Assembly: GCA_040217575.1 (NCBI GenBank)
Contig: JAVJPW010000008.1
Span: forward strand, 139,787-203,786
Origin: Alphaproteobacteria bacterium
Lineage (GTDB): Bacteria; Pseudomonadota; Alphaproteobacteria; UBA8366; Aestuariispiraceae
DNA: 64,000 bases
Reading direction: 5' to 3'
The position numbers and the translations under genes are program-made. Of the stretch, positions 12,009 to 55,851 are shown one piece after another. The notes under the pieces are model-generated. The model was not told the origin of the DNA, made no database searches, and saw only the letters and a program-made list of their open reading frames with translations. Position 1 is the first letter of the stretch. Each line of letters starts with the position of its first letter.

Positions 12009-12590
12009 CTACTGGTTTGCGGCAGGGTTATCAGATGCGGTGCCCGGTTCGCGCCGCAGGGCAAGCAGCAACTGTTCGCCAAGACCGGGTCGGTCGTCAC
12101 CGGCCTCCCGCCGTTTGTCGTCCGACCGGCGATAGACATAAATACCCAGAACCGACAGACCGACCGTCCATATCGTGCCCAGGGAGGCGATCGCCGAAAT
12201 GACGGTGCCGGCGCTTTCCGGGTCGGCCACCACCGCATAGGCAATGGCGCCCATCTGCGCGGCCCAGGTCAACGCCATGATATAGCCGAATGTCGGCCGC
12301 ATGCGCCGGACATAGGCATCTTCGCTCTTTGCTTCGGCACGGATGGTCCGGTTTACCTGTTCCAACCATGTCCGGTCCGTTCGGGATTCAAGTTCGGACA
12401 TGGCCTCTACATGGCGATTCATTTCCATCAGATCGTCGCCGCTCAACCGACCGGATTCAATTTCCGCATCCAGTTGGGAAAGCGCATCGCCGGCGGCCTG
12501 TGCGACGGAGTTTTCGGATCGGGACAACGCGCCTCCGATAGCGCGGGCCAACAGGGGAATACCAACCTGGGCCAAGAGGGCAGGAAGCAT
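12009..12590 (-). CDS. 3TM-type holin (GTA_holin_3TM/DUF3154-like)
   Basis: Amphipathic N-terminus, AEAKSEDAYVRRMRPTFGY motif followed by hydrophobic helices, basic C-terminal YRRSDDK; last gene of phage cluster. Confidence 0.7.
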   Translation of the reverse strand: MLPALLAQVGIPLLARAIGGALSRSENSVAQAAGDALSQLDAEIESGRLSGDDLMEMNRHVEAMSELESRTDRTWLEQVNRTIRAEAKSEDAYVRRMRPTFGYIMALTWAAQMGAIAYAVVADPESAGTVISAIASLGTIWTVGLSVLGIYVYRRSDDKRREAGDDRPGLGEQLLLALRREPGTASDNPAANQ

Positions 12591-12647
12591 GGTCTTATTC
12601 TCCTAATCGTCGAGATGGGCCGAAGGCACGCAAGACGCGTGTGGGGG

Positions 12648-12956
12648 TCAGCGGCCCGGGTCGGCACTCTGTGCCCGGCGGTCCAATTTGGATTCGATGC
12701 GCAAAAGATGATCGGTCAATCGGTGTTCAAGGTCCTTGAGCTGGGCGGTCGACGCATAGCTCTTGGCCACTTCCAGTTTGTAGGCGCCCAGGGCCTCCCG
12801 TGCGCGCGCGACCGCTGTTTCGATCCTTTGGCGATGCTGATCCAATGCAACATCCTGATCGCGCCGGGTTCGCCACAACAGCCACCAGAGGCTGGTTATC
12901 AGCGGAACTTCACCGACCGCAATCCACCAAAGCAGGTCTTGAGACGCCTCTGGCAT
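12648..12956 (-). CDS. Phage-associated membrane-anchored coiled-coil protein
   Basis: N-terminal hydrophobic segment (LLWWIAVGEVPLITSLWWLLW), then coiled coil ending LLRIESKLD; between terminase and holin. Confidence 0.7.
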   Translation of the reverse strand: MPEASQDLLWWIAVGEVPLITSLWWLLWRTRRDQDVALDQHRQRIETAVARAREALGAYKLEVAKSYASTAQLKDLEHRLTDHLLRIESKLDRRAQSADPGR

Positions 12957-12992: not shown

Positions 12993-14474
12993 TCAGACAG
13001 AGAACTCGCTGGGTGCAAGGACGGTATGGTCATGCCCGCGCCAGTTTTTCCTGTTTTCGACCGGGCCGTGCCGCGGAAGGCGGACAGGCTCCATCAGCAA
13101 GCACCCGGCGACGGCATCGAGGCCATCATCGCGGGCAGCGGTTCCATCGGGTCGCCATTCCCGCATCTCTGCCGGAAAAGCCGTATCCCAAACCGATGTG
13201 TGACATAGGATCTGCGACGCCGCGAGACTGGCATCGAACGCTTCCAGTATTCTGGTTTCCTTCGACTTTGACGAATGATGTTCGCGGACTGCGCAGGCTA
13301 CGCCGCAGGCGGCCATTTCCGACCGAAGCAACCCCGGCAGAAAGCGGCCAATGCCATTCGTTTCAATCGTGACGCTGGGCAGGAAGTTTCGGCGGGCAAA
13401 CCGCACGACAGCGCGGCACTGCTGTCGGGCCTCGTCCATCGCAAGACCCGGGTCCGTTTCCAGATATAGGACACGATGAAGCCGATAAAGCCCGTCATCA
13501 CCGGTAAAGACACAGGCAACCACGGAAGCATCGCCGGCCCCCTTTGCCCCATATGCGGGGTCCCACCAGGCGGATGCGGACCGCATTCGTATATCATCCA
13601 GCATCAGGATCGCCTCGCCATTGCGTTCCAACAGTTCGAGCCGGGCGTCGTAGAGACGCATTCGACCGGGATCCAGCCGAATATCACCGGACGCCACCGG
13701 CTTCAGCATCATCTGACTTTGGAATTTCGCATCCCCATGACGCCGACGGATGCTTTCCACAGCTTCTCTATCGTATCGTTCCGGCCAGGACGACGACCCG
13801 TCCGCCTTCAGGATCGGCATTTCAAAGCGGAGAAAACCCGCCAGAAACGCCTGAGTTTCGCCCAGTTCCGGCTGCGCCCTTTCCGCATAGATGGTATGGT
13901 AAGTGTGGGGTGTCCCCACATAAATCTGCGTGCCGCCGGGCACCAGAATGTAGTCCGCTTCGGCCAGACGTTCCCTCAGATCCGACCGCTTCGGTGCGGT
14001 GTCGCACGTGTTCGGCACCTCCACATCGTCGAAGACAATGACGTCCGCTCGGCTGCCGGTGAGGTTGGCGCTGATACCGCGCGCCATCATCGACGGGTCG
14101 CGCAGTTCCAGATCTCGATCGATGGTAAACCTGTCGGCGGCCCATTGATCCGACCGTTCCGGCTTCAGGCCATGGGTCAGTGGATGTCGTTCCAGCACAC
14201 GCTTGACGTTTCGAACCATACGCGTGGCCAGGTCCTGTTCCGCTGCCAGAACAAGTATCCGCAAGTTGCGGTTCCGACCCAGCAGCCACGCACAGAAAAG
14301 CCCCACAAGGGTCGACTTTCCGGCGGCCCGAAACGCCATCAGAAGAAGACGGGTATCGCCACCGGACCAACGCGCGTTCAACCATCGGCAAATTCGACGA
14401 TGCGCCAGCGGCGTTTCAACGCCTTGATGCCGGTTCCAGATCCAGACGAATTCAAGAAATGTGCATTTCTCCAT
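12993..14474 (-). CDS. Terminase large subunit, T7 gp19-like
   Basis: Walker A MAFRAAGKS, LTGSRADVIVFDDVEVP (compare T7 gp19 LTGSRADIIIADDVEIP), RNase-H-like nuclease WDPA...GDASV, ETNG, DDGLDA. Confidence 0.92.
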   Translation of the reverse strand: MEKCTFLEFVWIWNRHQGVETPLAHRRICRWLNARWSGGDTRLLLMAFRAAGKSTLVGLFCAWLLGRNRNLRILVLAAEQDLATRMVRNVKRVLERHPLTHGLKPERSDQWAADRFTIDRDLELRDPSMMARGISANLTGSRADVIVFDDVEVPNTCDTAPKRSDLRERLAEADYILVPGGTQIYVGTPHTYHTIYAERAQPELGETQAFLAGFLRFEMPILKADGSSSWPERYDREAVESIRRRHGDAKFQSQMMLKPVASGDIRLDPGRMRLYDARLELLERNGEAILMLDDIRMRSASAWWDPAYGAKGAGDASVVACVFTGDDGLYRLHRVLYLETDPGLAMDEARQQCRAVVRFARRNFLPSVTIETNGIGRFLPGLLRSEMAACGVACAVREHHSSKSKETRILEAFDASLAASQILCHTSVWDTAFPAEMREWRPDGTAARDDGLDAVAGCLLMEPVRLPRHGPVENRKNWRGHDHTVLAPSEFSV

Positions 14475-14477
14475 CTT

Positions 14478-14822
14478 CTATGGGTCCTCTTCGGCGGACG
14501 AAGCATCCGCAGCAAGAGCCAGGCGCGCCGCTGACAAATAGGCTTCGACCTCTCCCTTTTTCCCTTGGTCGGCGACTTGTTCCTTCTCCAGGGCGGTTTC
14601 CGCCAGCTTGATAATCTGTTCGATATGGGCGAGCGCCGCCTTCGCGCCGGTGTGAGTTGCAACAAAACTCTTCGGGTCGTCGGATTGCCCGGTTAGCGCA
14701 ATACGTTGATAGGCGGCAATTGCCGCATCCAGCATTTCCGGCAGCCGCCTGATGAGTTCCTTGCGCAGTTGCTGTGCCTGCGTCCGGCGACGTGCCGGGC
14801 CAGATTTCGGTCTTGGTGCCAT
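14478..14822 (-). CDS. Hypothetical helical protein, candidate small terminase
   Basis: 114 aa, basic N-terminus, ends 3 nt before large terminase start; function assigned by position only. Confidence 0.6.
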   Translation of the reverse strand: MAPRPKSGPARRRTQAQQLRKELIRRLPEMLDAAIAAYQRIALTGQSDDPKSFVATHTGAKAALAHIEQIIKLAETALEKEQVADQGKKGEVEAYLSAARLALAADASSAEEDP

Positions 14823-15063: not shown

Positions 15064-17550
15064 TTACAGCGACAAGGGCTGGTCGGCTTGAAGCGCCCAT
15101 CGATGCAAACGAACTTCCTTTTCATTGGTGACCTCAAGTTTCACGACGCAATCTGTGCCCGTCCCCATGCTCTCAATATTGGCCGAACCGGAATAGATAC
15201 ATCGCGGGGAACCGGAAAATGAAGCCGGCGTCAGGGTCACCGCCGTCCAGGTCGCACCGCCATCACGGCTTACCGAAGCGGAAAAGTCGGTATTTTCTTC
15301 CGCGTCACCGACCTTCTCAAGGTCAATGATTGCACGAAGCTCGGTCGGGTCGGCGGATGCGGTGACGGGATTGCTGACTAGGGTCATATCCAATCCGATG
15401 GCGTGATCCTGCTCTATCCAGAAGCACCAGTCCGAACCGGGGTCGTTTGTTCCGGCCGTACGCATTGCGCCATCCGGATATCCGCCGGCATCATCATACT
15501 TGACCCGGAACGTCGTTTCCGGATCAGCCACCAACCAGTATTTCGTCGCAGGCGTCGGCGTGAACGGAATGTCAAAGGTGAAAAGACAGGTGGCGGCCGC
15601 ACTGTTCATGTCTCTGCTGATGTCTACCGTACAGGCCGCGAGGGCCCCCGCGGCAATGTCCGGTGCATCACCATTGTCGCCGAAGATGGCGAAGACGACT
15701 TCATTTGATGTTCCGAGCCCGGTCCCGTCGTAAAGTGCAAGCCCGCCGCCGATAATTCTGTTTCCGGTAGACACTTCGAAGGATTGTGCATAGTCACCCG
15801 CCGAGGAAGAACCGACAATCTGTGTGTAATGACCGGATGTCCAATCTTCGTTGAAAAAGACGTCCCCGCTCGTGACAGGAAACACACCGCATTTGACCGA
15901 GGACAGATACACATACGATCCGCCGGCCCCACTCTCCGCGCTGATCCCAATTCGCGTTTCACCGTCGCTGCCAGTCGAATCGGTCTCGTAATCCTGTTCG
16001 GACTGATCGACGATCTTTTCACCATCGAGCCAGACCTTGATGTCAGAAATGCAATTGCTGCTGTCCAATCGCTGCCAGATGGTCAGGACATACCAGACAT
16101 CGTCAACAAAGGTCCCGGCATCACTCAGGAAATGGTATGTGTTTACGCCCCCTCCACGGTTCTTGACCAGGCGTCCGTTGCCGTCGATCGACAGCAAGGA
16201 CCGCCGCCCCGAATCGTGTGTCGTGTATATCTGCAATGCCGGATAGACTGCGGTGCCACCATCGGCAAACGCTCCCAGCGCCGCAATGTCGGAGAACCGT
16301 AATTCCATCGAGACCAAACTCTCCGAGCCCCAATGGCCTATATCCTTGTAGATATGAGCATAGCTGTTGGCTTGCGGGCTGGTGGAAACCAGGGAAATGC
16401 ACGATTTCCCACCAACAGATCCTGCGGAGGCATCAACGTCACCGGTGTTGTTTTCGCTGATAGTCCAGCCATTGAGAGCCCCGCTACCGTCGAATGCCGT
16501 ATCGTCCACCCCGGCGTCACACGCAACAATCGCGGCGCTTCTGTTGGTGATATAGCCCGGAATAGACTTATGGGTGACGTTGGACGAGTTAGCGTTGTCC
16601 AATCCGGTTGTGTCGGAAAAGACATCGAGATACGTATTAATCAAAGCTTTCGGCCCAAGCCCGTCGATGCGTGCCAATTCCCATGCCGTTACAAGGGCAA
16701 GGTCAGCGGTATTGGCCAGCGCGGTCACATTTGTACTGATCGTGTCCAGCAGATTTCCGTCCGCATCCGGATCCCGGCCATTTATGGTCTCCACATTCGT
16801 AATTGACTGGGCTCCCATGTCGAGCGGCCCGGTCATTGAGGCCGATCCGTCCCGGGCGAGATATATATCGGCCGTCGCAATCGCCTCCGTCCATCCAGAC
16901 CCGGTATAGGCCATCAGGCTTTCAAGGCCTGTGTCGAAATAGAAGTCCCCCGCCTGTAACGGTGAACCGTCAATCCGGGTGATGGGTTGGTTCTCCAAAT
17001 TACCGGTTCCCAGATAGATCAGTGCGAAACTGGATATGTTGCCGCTGATCTTTGCGTTCACCGTTTCCGGTCTCCCGTCCAGGTCAAAACTCAGCAACAT
17101 GCCGGCGCGATCTTTGACAGTCGGCAAGACCAGTTCAATATCCGTGTCGTATGGCTGGCGATGTATTGAATCGCCGACCAACGCCTCTGTTTGCTGCAAC
17201 AGCAACGCCGTCCGATCCAGTTCATCGTTCAGGACCGCAGCCCGAAGGTCCGCTCCCGGCGTGAAATCTGTGGTACGCTGAAAGGGCATATCGCGCCACA
17301 TCGTCACACGGGCGCCATCAGCGGGTATGACGGACAGTTGAACAGATCCTCCGGTAGGTTCTCCTACACCGGAAACGGTGTAGTCGGTGCTGTCCAAAAC
17401 TGTAGCATTCACGGCAACCTTGAGGTCACTCGCAGCAAGAACCGGAAAGTCGAAATCAAATGTATCTGTGGCGTTCTCACCCGCGCCTTGCAGAACCTGA
17501 ACGCGCGGGCGGATGTCATTGATCAGAATGTCGGGCATGGCTAACTCCAA
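15064..17550 (-). CDS. Tail fibre / receptor-binding protein
   Basis: N-terminus resembles T7 gp17-type adaptor (TDTFDFDFPVLAASDLKV...DYTVSG...RTTDF...LNDELDR); Gly/Ser/Thr/Asp beta-rich body; C-terminal SVSRDGGATWTAVTL motif; follows tail tube genes. Confidence 0.82.
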   Translation of the reverse strand: MELAMPDILINDIRPRVQVLQGAGENATDTFDFDFPVLAASDLKVAVNATVLDSTDYTVSGVGEPTGGSVQLSVIPADGARVTMWRDMPFQRTTDFTPGADLRAAVLNDELDRTALLLQQTEALVGDSIHRQPYDTDIELVLPTVKDRAGMLLSFDLDGRPETVNAKISGNISSFALIYLGTGNLENQPITRIDGSPLQAGDFYFDTGLESLMAYTGSGWTEAIATADIYLARDGSASMTGPLDMGAQSITNVETINGRDPDADGNLLDTISTNVTALANTADLALVTAWELARIDGLGPKALINTYLDVFSDTTGLDNANSSNVTHKSIPGYITNRSAAIVACDAGVDDTAFDGSGALNGWTISENNTGDVDASAGSVGGKSCISLVSTSPQANSYAHIYKDIGHWGSESLVSMELRFSDIAALGAFADGGTAVYPALQIYTTHDSGRRSLLSIDGNGRLVKNRGGGVNTYHFLSDAGTFVDDVWYVLTIWQRLDSSNCISDIKVWLDGEKIVDQSEQDYETDSTGSDGETRIGISAESGAGGSYVYLSSVKCGVFPVTSGDVFFNEDWTSGHYTQIVGSSSAGDYAQSFEVSTGNRIIGGGLALYDGTGLGTSNEVVFAIFGDNGDAPDIAAGALAACTVDISRDMNSAAATCLFTFDIPFTPTPATKYWLVADPETTFRVKYDDAGGYPDGAMRTAGTNDPGSDWCFWIEQDHAIGLDMTLVSNPVTASADPTELRAIIDLEKVGDAEENTDFSASVSRDGGATWTAVTLTPASFSGSPRCIYSGSANIESMGTGTDCVVKLEVTNEKEVRLHRWALQADQPLSL

Positions 17551-17587: not shown

Positions 17588-18043
17588 TCAGGGACCCGGC
17601 TCTTCTTGCGGTTCGGACTCTTCGATCACAGACCCAAGCGTGACCAGCGACTGTCCGATTTCCAGGATTGAGCCGAATGGATCGTCATCCGAAAGCAAAC
17701 TTCCGGCCTGTGGCGATGCGTTGAACAAGGAACGGCCTTCGGCCAGTTGTTCGTCGAACTTCTTGTTGAGCCCCCGAAGAACAGCGGCACCGGAACCATC
17801 CCCAACCCCGGCCCCCGAGGCACCGAGCCGCGCCCGTGCAGACGCTTCCGCCGAACGCCGTTCGCGCTCCAGTCTGCGTTCCTCGATCTGTTGCCGCAAA
17901 GTAGCGTGGCGCTGCTGCTGGGCGGCGTGGGCTGCCTGTTTCCTTCGCTGGCGGTTAGATTGCTGTATGCCGTGAAGTGTCGAAGCGACCGCCATGATCG
18001 CCTGTATCTCTGCCATCGTGATTCTCCATTGCGTGTCATTCAC
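17588..18043 (-). CDS. Small virion protein, possible internal/ejection protein (T7 gp14-like)
   Basis: Gln/Arg/Ala coiled coil then ARARLGASGAGVGDGSGAAVL; position after tail tube B matches internal virion genes. Confidence 0.55.
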   Translation of the reverse strand: MNDTQWRITMAEIQAIMAVASTLHGIQQSNRQRRKQAAHAAQQQRHATLRQQIEERRLERERRSAEASARARLGASGAGVGDGSGAAVLRGLNKKFDEQLAEGRSLFNASPQAGSLLSDDDPFGSILEIGQSLVTLGSVIEESEPQEEPGP

Positions 18044-19950
18044 CCGTTGACTGAAATTTCTGCCAGAACCGACAGGATGGTTGAGGAAAGCGGGTCATGC
18101 TGTTCAATCCGCCAAAGCGGTTTTGGGTCCCCACGCGTCCATCCAAGAGCCCGAACCGTCTTGTCGCCCGTAATCGGCGTAATTGGAGAATCCAGCGCTT
18201 CCGGACCAAGAGTCTTGAAAGGCAGTGGCCGGAGCCCCTGACCAACGTCGACGCGCAGGGCCTGTGTTTGGAAAAGGCGAAATGTTGCTTTCACAAGGCG
18301 AACTGCAGCACCCTGGGCAACACCGCCACCTGGGATATGAAAGACAGGTAGAGGTTCTACGACATGTGTGAACCGAAGACCTGCCTGCAGGTTTGTCGCA
18401 GGCTGCGAAAGTATGATTTTTCCCGCGATTACTTCCACCGGGTCACGGACAACACCATCCGCGACAATATCGACGGTACGCCCGTCCAAATGACCGAAAC
18501 CATTCCACTCGTTCTTCGGCAACTCTTCGAATCCGACGCTTGCCGTTATGCCCGCGTCGGTCTGCACATCCGAATCCAGTTTTTCAATTCGGAAAGACGC
18601 GTCGCGCTCTACCAGGCAATAGATTTCCTCACCCACCGCCGCCACCGACCGGACAGCGCCATCCGTTTCGAAAAGCGTCCAGGCATTGACGCTTTCGCGC
18701 CGGAAGACGGTAACCGACGCCATCGTTCCGTCCGAATTGACGACATAAAGAATTCGATCCGTCTTGTGAAAATCCTGATCAACCGGCGATCGCAACATAT
18801 CTTCTGAAAGCACGGCAAGGTCGGTCGACTGGTACGCCTGTTCCACATCTGCAAAAAGAAACTCCCGCAGTTCCGAACCGCTGCGGGAAACGAAAAGCGT
18901 TGCGCCATCCACGTCGTTGGGGGGAATGGTCCGATCCACCGGAGAACCAATTCGGGTTTGGCGATTCAACTGAATGTTTGACGGTGTAAGCGGATCGCCG
19001 GAGACCATCCATTCCGCGCCAGATGTAAAAACCTGCAAATGACGCCCCGAAAAGACAGCGCGTACAGCGTTGACCTGATCGGACAGGATCGCGAACTCGA
19101 TGGCTTCGTCGTCTTCCGCATCACCTAGGTCGAAATTGAAAAGATCCGCGGACCTGGACAGCCACAAACGGTTGGTGAGATCCCGGCTTCCGCCAATCAC
19201 GAGCCTGTCCTGATGAAATGTGCATGAGACGGGGTAACCACGCACCGGCGAAAAAGAGGCTTCCTCCCAGTCCTTCTCTGCGCCGGTAGCGGCCAGTGTT
19301 TCCAACACGTCAGCGGAAGCATTCCTTGCGTCGGCGACAGCAGTGATTTCAATTTCCCGGTCGGCAATGCGAAAGCGAACACCAACATGGCCCTGGACGA
19401 AAACGTCCCCCGAAGCCGTCACCGAAATTGAGCCGCTTGTCCCGCTGGGCGTCAGCGTCAAATCGTCCGACGCAAACTTAAAATGCGGCTGGTTGATCCG
19501 ACCGGAATTTTCGTGGAACACCCAATCCGCCAGAGTCCAGACACTGGCGCTCGAACGCGTAAGCCGCTTGGGCGGAACGTCTGGATGAACCAGAAGAAGC
19601 GTGTCCGCGCTTTGCGTCCAATTGACCTGTCTTAGTTGTACCTCCGTCCAGGGCGCATCGATCGTCACAACCTCGGAATCGTCGGCATAAACGGCGATTT
19701 TCAAATTGCTGAGCACCAGCAGATAGACCTGTTCCGTGTTGAACTCGAAGGCGATCAGCCGTCCGCCGCCCAACGCATTCGCAATATGCCGCAAACCAGC
19801 CCGACGCCGAATTCCGCCGGTCGGAATGACGCGCACATTCCGCAGTTTCGCCGCTCCGTTTTCATAGGCGCTCAGATCACCGCGCCCGATCAGTTCGGGC
19901 GACAATTCCCCTGCCGTGAAATTTGTCTTTATCGTCTTGACCCGAGCCAT
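18040..19950 (-). CDS. Tail tubular protein B / nozzle (T7 gp12-like)
   Basis: KTNFTAGELSP...GGIRRRAG N-terminus, WTQSADTL, FHQDRLVIGG, beta-propeller-like repeats. Confidence 0.85.
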   Translation of the reverse strand: MARVKTIKTNFTAGELSPELIGRGDLSAYENGAAKLRNVRVIPTGGIRRRAGLRHIANALGGGRLIAFEFNTEQVYLLVLSNLKIAVYADDSEVVTIDAPWTEVQLRQVNWTQSADTLLLVHPDVPPKRLTRSSASVWTLADWVFHENSGRINQPHFKFASDDLTLTPSGTSGSISVTASGDVFVQGHVGVRFRIADREIEITAVADARNASADVLETLAATGAEKDWEEASFSPVRGYPVSCTFHQDRLVIGGSRDLTNRLWLSRSADLFNFDLGDAEDDEAIEFAILSDQVNAVRAVFSGRHLQVFTSGAEWMVSGDPLTPSNIQLNRQTRIGSPVDRTIPPNDVDGATLFVSRSGSELREFLFADVEQAYQSTDLAVLSEDMLRSPVDQDFHKTDRILYVVNSDGTMASVTVFRRESVNAWTLFETDGAVRSVAAVGEEIYCLVERDASFRIEKLDSDVQTDAGITASVGFEELPKNEWNGFGHLDGRTVDIVADGVVRDPVEVIAGKIILSQPATNLQAGLRFTHVVEPLPVFHIPGGGVAQGAAVRLVKATFRLFQTQALRVDVGQGLRPLPFKTLGPEALDSPITPITGDKTVRALGWTRGDPKPLWRIEQHDPLSSTILSVLAEISVNG

Positions 19951-20519
19951 CAGCCCCTTACTCCCACAAGAGTGTAATCATCGAAGCGCGGCGGCATGTC
20001 TTGCTGGGCATCAATCAGGCGAGCCTGCCGGAACTGGTTTTCGGCCAGTTTGTGAAGAACCTCCGATCGTGAGACGCTTTCCGTAATAGGAAGACAGAAT
20101 TCGGCTGCCAGCCGGCCGATCAAAGCCTGGTCGAAGAATGGGGGAAACGACGATTCATTGGGGCGAAAAATATAAGTCAGGGTGACAGCGCCCGCATTCG
20201 TATGAAGACGACGTTCGACCAGGCGGTAATCCAGCCCGCGGCCGTACCCGGCCTCACCGGCGGAGAGGGCGCGAAGAAAGTCTGACGGCAACTGATAAGC
20301 GTAATCATAGTCGGCGACTGGCACCCCGACCAAACGCGACAAGTCACGCTGGGCGGTCGCAAAACTCCAGGGGTGGGCCGACAGAAGCGCATCGCGCGTC
20401 GATGGATAAAGTGTCGCCGCAACAACACTTTCCGCCGTCCCCTCATCGAACCCGGCAATGGGTGACGCGCCGATCTTGATCAATGCACGGCTGGCAAGCT
20501 GAATGCTGTTCAGGGCCAT
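19950..20519 (-). CDS. Tail tubular protein A / gatekeeper (T7 gp11-like)
   Basis: ASRALIKIGASPI...RDALLSAHPWSFA...YQLPSDFLR...F..ALIGRLA pattern; 1-bp overlap with tube B. Confidence 0.85.
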   Translation of the reverse strand: MALNSIQLASRALIKIGASPIAGFDEGTAESVVAATLYPSTRDALLSAHPWSFATAQRDLSRLVGVPVADYDYAYQLPSDFLRALSAGEAGYGRGLDYRLVERRLHTNAGAVTLTYIFRPNESSFPPFFDQALIGRLAAEFCLPITESVSRSEVLHKLAENQFRQARLIDAQQDMPPRFDDYTLVGVRG

Positions 20520-20893: not shown

Positions 20894-21718
20894 TTAGGAT
20901 TCGAGGCAGGGAAGGCGCACGATGCCGGTCGCATCGATGACGCCGGCACCCTGGCTCATCATGTGATTGACGAAGTGGGCGGCCCGGTCGCCGTGCCACG
21001 AGATATCGGATGTGACATCTTTGCCGATGGCATGACCGACGGCCGTCTTGTGGTACCAGTACCCGTTCCGCACACCGCCAGACAGAACAAGCCCGGAATG
21101 CGGCATCCAAAGCGTACCAAGCCAGTTCTTCGCCTGGGTCCCCTTCCAAGGCAGGTCATCGTTGCCGACGTAGTCCGCGTTCGCGAATTCCTCGATGTCC
21201 AGCAGGTCGCTCCACTGCTTCCAGCCGATGATCGCAAACCGCTGACCGTCGTCCGGAACGTCGGCGGCGCCTAGCATCTCAAAGGCCTCCAGGACCTTTG
21301 CCTTGGTCAGGCCGTCGGACCCATCCTGGGCATTCTGGCCGGACGCCACACCTTCCATTGATTCGATGATCAGATCATCGGTCTTCCGGCCGAGTGCATA
21401 AGCGCCGGCATTGGCAACGACCGATCGTTCGTCATGCCGGATTTTCATTTCGTCCAAGGCATCAACCCAGTCGCCGGCATAGTAATCCTGCAACGAGACT
21501 TCGACCGGCGTATGGTCGACATTCATGACCGGGACTTTGCCGTGGCGGGCCTTGGTCGATGCGGTGCCCTTTCCGACTTTCTGGAAGGTCGTGGAAGAGC
21601 CTTTGATATTGTCCTTCGTCCGCACGGTATTGCGAAGCTTGGATCCCATCCGCTGATAGGCGTTATGGACCTCGTTCTCAAACTGGCGGCTGAAGGATTG
21701 ATCCACCGTTGTGGACAT
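20894..21718 (-). CDS. Major capsid protein (podovirus-type)
   Basis: QFENEVHNAYQRMGSKLRNTV...RHG...DYYAGDWVD.LDE.K...AYALGRKTDDLII resembles HTVC010P/BPP-1-type capsids; AAGGA RBS. Confidence 0.85.
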   Translation of the reverse strand: MSTTVDQSFSRQFENEVHNAYQRMGSKLRNTVRTKDNIKGSSTTFQKVGKGTASTKARHGKVPVMNVDHTPVEVSLQDYYAGDWVDALDEMKIRHDERSVVANAGAYALGRKTDDLIIESMEGVASGQNAQDGSDGLTKAKVLEAFEMLGAADVPDDGQRFAIIGWKQWSDLLDIEEFANADYVGNDDLPWKGTQAKNWLGTLWMPHSGLVLSGGVRNGYWYHKTAVGHAIGKDVTSDISWHGDRAAHFVNHMMSQGAGVIDATGIVRLPCLES

Positions 21719-22047
21719 GGGGTCATCCTTTCATAGATGCGGGCAGAAGCACCGGCGATCTCTCACCACCGGCACCACCGCCCATGTTTCATTTTCCATT
21801 GGATTTTGCCGCGGTTCTCGCGCCTGAAACGACGCGGCCGCGAAGGGCGGGACGACCGTTCCGGACAAGTCCGGCAATCGGGGCCCCATATGTCAGAAGG
21901 GAGTATACGGATTGTCGCACCGAAAGCGCTGGCGCGGTCCGACCGACAAACATGTTTTCCTGATCAATCCGGAATGCCCCTAATCCGTTGAGAGGGGTGG
22001 TTCATCCGGGACTGTTCAGGCACATTTGTGGCCCGTTCCTGAAAAGG

Positions 22048-22075
22048 AACATACATATGTTTCTTTTAATGTCAA
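22048..22075 (-). promoter_or_regulatory. Sigma70-type promoter TTGACA-N16-TATGTT facing the capsid gene, overlapped by a palindrome
   Basis: Minus strand reads TTGACA TTAAAAGAAACATATG TATGTT; palindrome AGGAACATA-CA-TATGTTTCT at 22045-22064; second inverted repeat TCGTATTT-N9-AAATACGA at 22093-22117. Confidence 0.6.
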
Positions 22076-22178
22076 TATATTTTGTGATTTTGTCGTATTT
22101 AAATAGAACAAATACGATATATAAAAAGTTCTGATGCTGATACCGCCGCTGTAGGAAGCGGTCTTGCCGTAAAAACCG

Positions 22179-22568
22179 GTGCTGCGTACTGTTGCCGCCG
22201 ACATGATCTACCATCTTGCAAAAAAGTCGGCCTGGAACGAGGCGCAGGAGACCGGCGTCTATCGCGGGGCCGAGGCCGACCGCGCCGACGGATTTCTTCA
22301 TCTTTCCACTGACAAGCAAATCAGGGAAAGCGCCAGGAAACACCGTACCGGCGAATCCGATCTGGTTCTTCTTTTTGTTGACGAGACACAATTGCCGGAA
22401 ACTCTTGTCTGGGAAGCGTCGCGCGGCGGGCAATTGTTTCCCCATCTATATGAGTCGCTTCCGATTGCCGCCGTGACAGGAACGGCCGACCTGCCTTTGG
22501 ACCGGTCAGGGGACCACGTGTTCCCGGAAAACCTTCCGGCATCCTTCCCCCCGAGTACAGACGGATGA
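22179..22568 (+). CDS. DUF952 family protein
   Basis: IYHLAKKSAW...DGFLHLST...GGQLFPHLY; overlaps pyrD start as is usual in alphaproteobacteria; start may be ATG 22203. Confidence 0.85.
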   Translation: MLRTVAADMIYHLAKKSAWNEAQETGVYRGAEADRADGFLHLSTDKQIRESARKHRTGESDLVLLFVDETQLPETLVWEASRGGQLFPHLYESLPIAAVTGTADLPLDRSGDHVFPENLPASFPPSTDG

Positions 22569-23629
22569 GCTGGGCGCGACTGGCCTTGCCGGCGATCCGT
22601 CTGATAGACCCGGAACGCGCACACCGGGCGACGATTCGCGCGCTTGCATGGGGGATCGGGCCCAGAAACACGACCGCGCCCGACCCGCGATTGGGGTGCG
22701 AGGTCTTCGGGCTTCGGTTTCCGACACCCATCGGTCTGGCCGCGGGATTCGATAAGGACGCCGAAGCCGTCCGCGCCTGCCGAAACCTGGGTTTCGGTTT
22801 CGTGGAAATCGGTACCGTCACGCCCCGCCCTCAGCCGGGAAACCCGAAGCCCAGATTATTCCGGTTGTCGCAAGACCGTGCCGTCATCAACCGCATGGGG
22901 TTCAACAATGGGGGTGCCGCCCGCGCCGCCCAACGTCTTAGTGGATTGGACCGGTCCCGCCTACTGCCCCCGATCGGGGTCAATATCGGCAAGAACAAGG
23001 ACAGCGACGACGCTGTCGCGGATTATCGGACATGTGCTGAAACGCTGGCCCCCTATGCCGACTATCTGACCGTCAATGTTTCTTCCCCCAACACACCGGG
23101 GTTGCGGGACCTGCAGACAGCGGACTGGCTTGCCAGAATTGTCGAAGCGGTGGACGACGCCACCCGGTCGGTTACCACACCCAAACCGATCCTGGTGAAG
23201 GTCGCTCCCGATCTGGACACCCGGGGCGAGGAAGAAGTGTCATCCATCGCGCAGCACCCGGCGGTCAGCGGGATAATCATATCGAACACCACGGTCGCGC
23301 GACCGGATACCCTGGTCAGCAGACACCGGGGCGAAGCGGGCGGCCTGAGCGGTGCGCCCCTGTTCCGGCCGTCGACCGACCTTCTGGCGCGGATATACCG
23401 GCGAACGGAAGGCAAAATCCCCCTGATCGGTGTGGGCGGGGTTGCGTCCGCCCGGGACGCCTATGAGAAAATCCGCGCCGGCGCCAGCCTGGTACAACTC
23501 TATTCCGCGATGGTCTATCATGGTCCCGACCTGATCCCCACCATCACAGCCGGTCTGTCGGACCTGCTTGATCGCGACGGCTATGGGTCGATTGCTGAGG
23601 CAGTCGGCTCTGGAGCCGGAAACGGATAG
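22565..23629 (+). CDS. pyrD: Quinone-dependent dihydroorotate dehydrogenase
   Basis: GLAAGFDKDA, GTVTPRPQPGNPKPRLFRL, NIGKNK, NVSSPNTPGLR, KVAPDL, GGLSGAPL. Confidence 0.97.
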   Translation: MSWARLALPAIRLIDPERAHRATIRALAWGIGPRNTTAPDPRLGCEVFGLRFPTPIGLAAGFDKDAEAVRACRNLGFGFVEIGTVTPRPQPGNPKPRLFRLSQDRAVINRMGFNNGGAARAAQRLSGLDRSRLLPPIGVNIGKNKDSDDAVADYRTCAETLAPYADYLTVNVSSPNTPGLRDLQTADWLARIVEAVDDATRSVTTPKPILVKVAPDLDTRGEEEVSSIAQHPAVSGIIISNTTVARPDTLVSRHRGEAGGLSGAPLFRPSTDLLARIYRRTEGKIPLIGVGGVASARDAYEKIRAGASLVQLYSAMVYHGPDLIPTITAGLSDLLDRDGYGSIAEAVGSGAGNG

Positions 23630-55120: not shown

Positions 55121-55851
55121 ACCGCCTGGACGGGAAAATCGCCCTTGTCACCGGCGGCCGGTCAGGGATCGGTCTTGCCTGTGCGACGGCGTTCGAAGCG
55201 GCCGGCGCGCGCGTGTTCACGGCCCAACGCGGCGACGGGCCCGTCGGACGGACAATCCATGCGGACCTGTCCGACCCCAACGCGCCACGCGTGATTGTCG
55301 ACCGCATCCTCACAGAAGGCGGTGGGATCAATATCCTGGTCAACAATGCCGGCGTAATGGAAGAAGGCACGGTTGAGGAGATGGACCCTGAAGCCTGGTC
55401 ACGGACCATCGCCGTCAACCTGACTGCGCCCTACCTTCTGATGCGCGCGGCGATGCCGGCCCTGCGAAAGTCAAAAGGCGCAATCGTCAACATCGGGTCG
55501 ATCGAAGGGCTGGGAAGCAATCCGCGTCACCCCGCCTATTGCGCGTCCAAGGCGGGCCTGCACGGGCTGACCCGCGCGGTCGCCATCGACCACGGACCGG
55601 ACGGCGTTCGTTGCAACGCGGTCGCGCCTGGATGGATTGACACAGATCTTAATACCGCATTTGCGGAAAATATGCCGGACCCGACCGCATTTCGCGCCGG
55701 CCTGTCCAAAATCCATCCGGTCGGCCGAACAGGCACGCCGGAAGACGTCGCAGCGCTGGTCGTCTGGCTGTCTTCCGACGCGGCGGCCTTTGTCACCGGT
55801 CAGGTCTGGACCGTGGACGGCGGGCGCATGTCGAAACTGAGCCTGCCATGA
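55117..55851 (+). CDS. Short-chain dehydrogenase/reductase
   Basis: TGGRSGIG, NNAG, YCASKAG, RCNAVAPG; ATGA overlap with upstream SDR. Confidence 0.92.
   Translation: MNRLDGKIALVTGGRSGIGLACATAFEAAGARVFTAQRGDGPVGRTIHADLSDPNAPRVIVDRILTEGGGINILVNNAGVMEEGTVEEMDPEAWSRTIAVNLTAPYLLMRAAMPALRKSKGAIVNIGSIEGLGSNPRHPAYCASKAGLHGLTRAVAIDHGPDGVRCNAVAPGWIDTDLNTAFAENMPDPTAFRAGLSKIHPVGRTGTPEDVAALVVWLSSDAAAFVTGQVWTVDGGRMSKLSLP

Follow-up and report, generated by a model that had tools for sequence, protein, structure and literature searches.

The gene transfer agent RcGTA, known from Rhodobacter capsulatus and Caulobacter, is LexA-dependent and siphovirus-like, with an HK97-type head module in which portal, protease/scaffold and capsid genes lie in one cluster. 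In phage T7, the capsid gene has its own promoter (phi10) and a structured 5′ leader. Large RcGTA-like clusters were reported to be absent from Rhodospirillales (PMC5721377). A podovirus-like nature was first described for a GTA-like element in the case of FpGTA of Faecalibacterium prausnitzii, which is encoded in two operons about 125 kb apart and is supported experimentally by particles, proteomics and packaged DNA of about 9 kb (Nat Commun 2026, PMC12946183). For the element family analyzed here, we found no published description in the literature.

The window, i.e., the whole 64-kb stretch of DNA that was analyzed, carries on its minus strand a T7-like late-gene cluster running from 21718 down to 12009 (Table 1). 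We consider it very probable that this cluster belongs to a chromosomally fixed, T7/BPP-1-like set of particle genes whose head module is split over two loci and works in trans. The stretch 21719-22041 would then be the 5′ leader of a podovirus-derived (T7/BPP-1-like) operon of capsid, tail, terminase and holin genes, while the portal gene, the scaffold genes, a gene for a CI/LexA-like repressor and three small genes would make up another operon, located on contig C5. A search of the whole genome with PF19821 returned a single copy of the capsid gene, and every other element gene is single-copy as well. The capsid locus is flanked by a gene for an AMP-binding enzyme on one side and by DUF952/pyrD on the other; about 460 nt upstream of the capsid ATG, up to the divergent DUF952-pyrD pair, are gene-free. 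Both loci are set between housekeeping genes and contain structural, packaging, lysis and regulator genes only. Replication, integration and excision genes are absent from both, and the GC content of the element is near that of its flanks. By position only, the 114-aa protein adjoining the terminase is a candidate small terminase. In the genomes G004 and G006 (loci L120 and L121) about 5 kb lie between the N-terminal adaptor of the fibre and the next conserved gene, and the corresponding stretch in G002 covers about 1.4 kb past the matched N-terminal part.

Table 1. Features of the capsid locus (positions in the 64-kb window) and of the portal locus (contig C5).
Feature	Position	Strand	Evidence or remark
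Major capsid protein (Phage_capsid_2)	20894-21718	-	PF19821, E 1.9e-84
Tail tubular protein A-like	19950-20519	-	phrog_394, E 6.9e-46
Tail tubular protein B-like	18040-19950	-	phrog_376, E 6.5e-142
Small internal-virion-like protein	17588-18043	-	phrog_418, E 4.3e-7 (weak)
Tail fibre, T7-type N-terminal adaptor	15064-17550	-	phrog_1640, E 4.9e-21; PF03906 under cut-off
114-aa protein	14478-14822	-	phrog_31793 (unknown function); adjoins terminase
Large terminase, T7-type	12993-14474	-	phrog_38, E 9.3e-83
102-aa protein and GTA_holin_3TM holin	12009-12956	-	holin PF11351, E 2.6e-13
Host genes DUF952 then pyrD, divergent	22203-23629	+	right-hand boundary of the capsid locus, constant within the genus
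5′ untranslated leader of the capsid-to-holin operon, ~322 nt	21719-22041	-	between predicted -10 and capsid ATG
Predicted sigma-70-type promoter TTGACA-16-TATGTT	22048-22075	-	10/12 consensus matches
Imperfect palindrome AAAAGGAACATA/TATGTTTCTTTT	22042-22067	.	over -10 and start site; 12-nt arms, 92% complementary
TATTTGTTCTA box	22105-22115	-	upstream of capsid -35
5′-proximal hairpin CCUGA...UCAGG	21959-22020	-	MFE fold
GC-rich hairpin	21739-21783	-	MFE fold; ends ~20 nt before capsid start codon
Portal	C5 628,342-630,039		PF12236 (Head-tail_con), E 2e-132, 441.6 bits (cut-off 27); profile positions 4-489 of 489
Bbp19-like gene	after portal (contig C5)		PF25181, 4.9e-17
gp9-like scaffold, 244 aa	L003 12347-13081 (contig C5)		PF05396 (Phage_T7_Capsid), 2e-12, 48.3 bits (cut-off 27.1)
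111-aa scaffold paralogue	L003 13130-13465 (contig C5)		25.6 bits, just under PF05396 cut-off
Small genes o138, o137	L003 9190-10012 (contig C5)		always precede portal, in split and contiguous elements

An earlier note on this DNA had remarked that portal and scaffold genes are missing in front of the capsid gene, and had proposed either a system split over several loci or an element that is decaying or makes empty shells. The HMM search of the whole genome suggested there returned exactly one T7-type portal gene (PF12236), with scaffold genes after it. The portal gene is an intact 566-aa ORF without stops and belongs to a module of about 5 kb (contig C5, ~626.3-631.5 kb) that lies between housekeeping genes and not inside another prophage, which supports the first of these proposals. 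The order of the module is o138, o137, a gene of 77 aa, portal, Bbp19-like gene, scaffold and short scaffold paralogue, preceded by the divergent gene for the CI/LexA-like (HTH/S24) repressor, a protein of 208 aa. The short paralogue shares its C-terminal 54 residues with the scaffold at 52% identity (DPRYWRDHDP...GFR.LYPG end), and both of these tandem scaffold-like genes are conserved across the family as well as in G026, a genome of another family. Flanking genes of the portal locus encode an amidohydrolase, a class IV aminotransferase, two asparagine synthases and a methyltransferase; no other phage-like genes were found around the module. Neither o138 nor o137 had a Pfam or PHROG match. 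In the all-helical o138 protein the motifs RPCEP and RPPD are invariant, and the structure model of this protein (pLDDT 79.5) gave no significant fold match in PDB; for o137 few homologues were found. A role of o138 as a Q-antiterminator was considered and set aside, the matches being too faint (E 3.7-4.3) to count as evidence. The source assembly consists of eight contigs, and the capsid and portal loci are placed on different ones, at least 378 kb apart as calculated from the contig ends.

In front of the capsid gene, ORF, tblastn and promoter searches confirmed the remark of the earlier note that there is non-coding DNA and a promoter only, without portal or scaffold. The four short ORFs of the leader (52-84 aa) had no match to any PHROG family. 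We rejected the leader as a pseudogenised portal or scaffold gene, since tblastn with the element's own portal, Bbp19, scaffold and regulator proteins gave a best E value of 0.15 in the region 21600-22250. The leader showed no homology to the sequence that follows the second scaffold gene (scaf2), so nothing points to a duplication of the breakpoint. The search for sigma-70 promoters returned two sites vs. 0.6 expected. From the promoter predicted at 22075-22048, transcription would start near 22041 and give a leader of about 322 nt, with a GC content of 0.59 vs. 0.24 in the 100-bp promoter block. All members of the genus have a leader of about 300-430 nt, poorly conserved in sequence, and TTGACw-16-TAnnnT can be read from the alignment at the same position in the other members, with TTTACA in G002. 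For the closest species pair the leader gave K of 0.08 vs. dS of 0.135-0.22 (0.135 for capsid), and for another pair K of 0.45 vs. dS of 0.59-1.19. These values suggest that the leader evolves slightly slower than synonymous sites, i.e., under mild constraint. It folds somewhat better than shuffled sequences (z -2.15), and hairpins of differing sequence are seen in the alignment of the congeners at the place matching the GC-rich hairpin before the capsid start.

To place the leader among its relatives, we turned to the capsid loci of other genomes, some 470 of which were covered in one scan. Among 80 related capsid loci, a portal or scaffold gene was located at most 1.1 kb upstream of capsid in 36 (contiguous), 1.1-3 kb upstream in 8 (expanded), and not within 3 kb in 32, which is all that is meant here by split; in the remaining 4 the flank was too short to classify. 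The spacer between scaffold and capsid genes is already long in the contiguous relatives (median 247 nt). It contains a recurrent element of the form P1-GG-AnAA-CC-[P2 hairpin]-GG-CC-(C)-P1′ (GGAnAACC...GGCCCGG), usually followed by CGGCGG...CCACAACCG and positioned about 110-370 nt ahead of the capsid genes (loci L033-L112). RNAalifold was uninformative on a plain MAFFT alignment of the spacers because this alignment is not structural, and it was replaced by explicit counts of pairs on 35 distinct sequences, using fixed-offset fragments and leaving out the interior of P2. Results showed that 70.4% of the cells were paired vs. 59.9% after shuffling (0 of 500 shuffles reached the observed value), while sliding the partners gave 26-48%. 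The covariation score was 0.311, as compared with 0.158 for shuffled sequences and at most 0.135 for slid partners, and a permutation test of P1 was concordant (0/5000). The counts support the motif structure but do not prove it, as kinship among the sequences inflates such tests.

The motif word was present in the 400 nt before the capsid gene at 24 of the 32 split loci, 19 of the 36 contiguous and 6 of the 8 expanded ones, vs. 3.6% of shuffled upstream regions. The motif has therefore stayed with the capsid gene after the splits, which points to a role in cis on capsid expression rather than to the end of a scaffold operon. A loose pattern scan of five genomes gave counts at background level, and Rfam searches returned nothing credible in the window leader; for eight canonical loci they gave no match with E up to 1. 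In the genus of the window the motif reads GGGGACAATCC and comes directly after the promoter; the hairpin 22020-21959 aligns with it and is a diverged counterpart of the helix-AnAA-helix motif of the family. The source genome does not have the canonical AnAA motif, and carries a GCGAGAACC remnant about 100 nt before the ATG. A small covariance model (R1, 33 positions), which is too weak, had no match in the window leader. Its best match in the window, at 55244-55274 (+) with 18.4 bits and E 0.28 (UCGGACGGACAAUCCA..CGGACCUGUCCGA), is far from the phage-like cluster and probably due to chance. The possibly structured leader of the earlier note is thus supported at the level of the family by covariation, and weakly in the source genome, where there is the z value of -2.15 and no match to the small model. 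We regard the capsid-proximal motif as a candidate new cis-regulatory RNA.

Separation of the loci raises the question of their joint expression. The palindrome at the capsid promoter has two inverted GAACA-type half-sites and is a candidate operator. The earlier note had also proposed to look for the same palindromes upstream of the portal gene; the palindromes of the capsid promoter turned out to be absent from the portal locus. What the two promoters share is the 11-mer TATTTGTTCTA, found as an exact copy at both, upstream of TTGACATT (E 0.012 in a small search). AGAACA was detected in 18 of 21 promoter regions (rep/o138, portal promoter and capsid promoter, in seven species) vs. at most 11 in shuffled sequences. 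GAACAAAAWTAGTCC was found upstream of the host lexA and recA genes, the AGAACA(A) word being common to the element promoters. As read from the promoter strings, the capsid -35 in G004 and G006 is placed inside GTTC-N7-GTTC, the alphaproteobacterial SOS box, and the boxes of the source genome are imperfect vs. the host-type LexA box. These sites suggest that both loci may be induced in trans via shared GAACA-type boxes, by LexA or by the S24 repressor of the element. As a separate observation, the source genome (G000) has a second LexA_DNA_bind gene (C5:942639-942809) besides the canonical lexA on C6.

Two gaps in the gene set bear on what the particles could do. The cluster encodes no ejection proteins of the gp15/gp16 type, which makes delivery of DNA uncertain. 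In the source genome, a gap of 57 nt (window 12590-12648) separates the 102-aa gene from the holin gene, without an endolysin, and a Hydrolase_2 gene was not found anywhere in the assembly (98.4% complete). A Hydrolase_2 (SleB-like) endolysin gene is present in G002 and G026 (L119 4916-5467 and L028 2786-3373), between the 102-aa gene and the holin gene or pyrD, and a gap of equal size, about 500 nt, is seen at this spot in the remaining four congeners. Release of particles may thus be impaired in the endolysin-less source strain. In the fibre, the first ~320 residues alone are conserved between species, and the receptor-binding parts appear to have been exchanged between them. The missing ejection proteins, the holin without an endolysin in the source strain and the poor conservation of the leader in the genus are also what would be seen if the same anatomy served something other than gene transfer, that is, killer or bacteriocin-like (PBSX-like) particles or the remains of a helper-dependent satellite, with the leader as a mere spacer with a promoter. 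We rate this reading as unlikely. Strong purifying selection on terminase (dN/dS 0.04) and portal (0.007) argues for DNA packaging, the virion gene set is full, and a covarying RNA motif has been kept with the capsid gene at 24 of 32 split loci. For the split particle gene set, chromosomal particle genes and vertical inheritance under purifying selection, both traits of gene transfer agents, were found.

Conservation of the two-site layout was examined in the genus Pacificispira/Hwanghaeella, in which each of seven other species has one capsid gene (84-88% identity) and one portal gene (65-71%). The pyrD-DUF952 flank of the capsid locus is found in all seven, and in six congeners examined in detail gene order and flanks are alike at both loci. 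Distances between the loci amount to 1.5, 1.2 and 1.3 Mb in the genus, as measured in three closed genomes, and two further genera of the family gave 244 kb (G010) and 68 kb (G016). For the closest species pair, dN/dS for the genes of both loci was 0.006-0.23, akin to that of host neighbours: 0.007 for portal, 0.008 for scaffold, 0.018 for capsid and 0.041 for terminase, as compared with 0.049 for pyrD and 0.025 for pyrC. The dS values mostly overlap those of the flanking host genes, being higher for rep, o137, portal and fibre and lower for o102 and holin. By these measures neither half is decaying, and both have diverged with the chromosome. In addition, portal and capsid divergences give a like ranking of the species pairs. 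A Pacificispira-type capsid locus with the pyrD-DUF952 flank was also seen in CP051228.1 (L035, 'Mesoflavibacter sp. isolate ih5'), which falls inside the genus on the capsid tree; the record name 'Mesoflavibacter' is probably wrong.

The alternative of the earlier note, empty shells or decay, is not supported by these data, as the genes of both loci are intact and purifying selection acts on them. One such rival reading takes the element for a decaying prophage remnant that has lost portal and scaffold, makes empty shells at most, and keeps the stretch before the capsid gene as deletion junk. An empty canonical place for portal and scaffold, the endolysin lost in the source strain and the absent ejection proteins fit such a history. 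It is nevertheless very improbable, given an intact portal gene and two scaffold genes elsewhere, purifying selection on all genes of both loci with dS mostly in the range of host neighbours, a two-locus layout conserved across the family and a GC content near that of the flanks. That the distant portal is an unrelated phage remnant which does not serve this capsid, as its place on another contig with its own repressor gene might suggest, is hardly credible, since matching modules are physically joined in G026 and many other genomes, every genome checked has one portal and one capsid gene, the divergences of the two rank the species pairs alike, and nothing else phage-like surrounds the portal.

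How the split particle gene set arose can be approached from G026, in which both modules form one block of about 16 kb with pyrD directly after it. The order is rep, then o138-o137-portal-Bbp19-scaf1-scaf2-capsid-tubA-tubB-fibre-terL-o102-(endolysin)-pyrD. No holin was found in this block by tblastn with the window proteins, and no further gap of gene size is apparent. On the capsid tree, whose clade structure tracks named taxa, the window belongs to a clade (support 95/91) in which 16 of the 17 rows are split and 1 is unknown, with a contiguous sister row. The clade includes Pacificispira, Hwanghaeella, Marivibrio, Curvivirga and MAGs (NCBI family Aestuariispiraceae), and the split appears to mark the whole of it; over the entire tree, the split state needs at least eight changes. 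Exactly one portal gene was also present in each of five other genomes. In three that are closed it is 916 kb, 73 kb or 5.8 kb away from capsid, and two draft genomes have their single portal gene on a contig other than that of the capsid gene. The capsid module of G016 is still adjacent to pyrD and oriented to it as in G026; beyond pyrD comes the portal module, convergent to the capsid module. Convergent modules are also found in G010. One inversion starting in the scaffold-capsid spacer would yield the layout of G016 and G010. Pacificispira differs in that the capsid block has the opposite orientation to pyrD and shares a strand with the portal module, so further rearrangements must have followed.

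Taken together, these comparisons suggest that in an ancestor of Aestuariispiraceae a contiguous element adjoining pyrD was broken within the spacer between scaffold and capsid, most likely by one inversion, and that later rearrangements brought the halves 1.2-1.5 Mb apart in Pacificispira. We propose that this break could be tolerated since a long spacer with a conserved RNA element already preceded the capsid gene, and that, as the capsid block has a predicted sigma-70 promoter of its own, the head could be assembled in trans. The leader RNA would have a cis-regulatory role, and DNA-filled, GTA-like particles would be produced. Maintained as a two-site layout under selection across the family, the element looks host-kept and GTA-like rather than like a dying prophage, and it may function as a gene transfer agent. 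With the loci 1.2-1.5 Mb apart in closed congeners and genomes of 34-36 kb in related phages, co-packaging of both halves would seem impossible. A scaffold/capsid split kept intact over the lifetime of a bacterial family would be intolerable for a self-propagating phage, and we take this as strong evidence, at the level of sequence, that the widespread T7-like gene set is a machine kept by the host and not a prophage. More tentatively, and with less than even confidence, the element could be an independent, podovirus-derived and SOS-wired gene transfer agent of Rhodospirillales-type Alphaproteobacteria, with its head encoded in trans and the AnAA RNA tuning capsid synthesis to the portal and scaffold supplied in trans, e.g., by binding the scaffold or another element protein. 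The element offers a natural experiment on the co-regulation of dispersed particle genes, and cultured strains such as Pacificispira spongiicola KN72 are suited to tests for a podovirus-type gene transfer agent in Alphaproteobacteria that have no RcGTA.

Among the known systems, the element resembles RcGTA in that phage-derived structural, packaging and lysis genes are fixed in an alphaproteobacterial chromosome at several loci, without replication and integration genes, are inherited vertically under purifying selection, and include a holin of the GTA_holin_3TM type. Unlike RcGTA, it is short-tailed and of T7/BPP-1-like lineage, and it is the head module itself that has been divided. By capsid, the closest complete phage genome is that of Pelagibacter phage EXVC031P Hodr (46% identity), followed by HTVC010P-like phages at about 32%. 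Those podoviruses are autonomous, with genomes of 34-36 kb, and the Hodr capsid gene begins about 40 nt after the preceding gene, whereas the chromosomal elements form a group of their own with 65-88% capsid identity. The ancestral order of portal, scaffold, capsid and tail tubular A and B genes is that of T7 (genes 8-9-10). Unlike T7, however, the element has no phage RNA polymerase and a sigma-70-like promoter, its capsid belongs to the HTVC010P/BPP-1-like PF19821 family and not to T7 gp10, and the module is not contiguous in the source genome. FpGTA comes from Firmicutes and is unrelated in sequence, and its cut separates a head/packaging operon from a tail/lysis operon. In the present element it is portal and scaffold that stand apart from the capsid, tail, terminase and lysis genes, at distances of up to 1.5 Mb.
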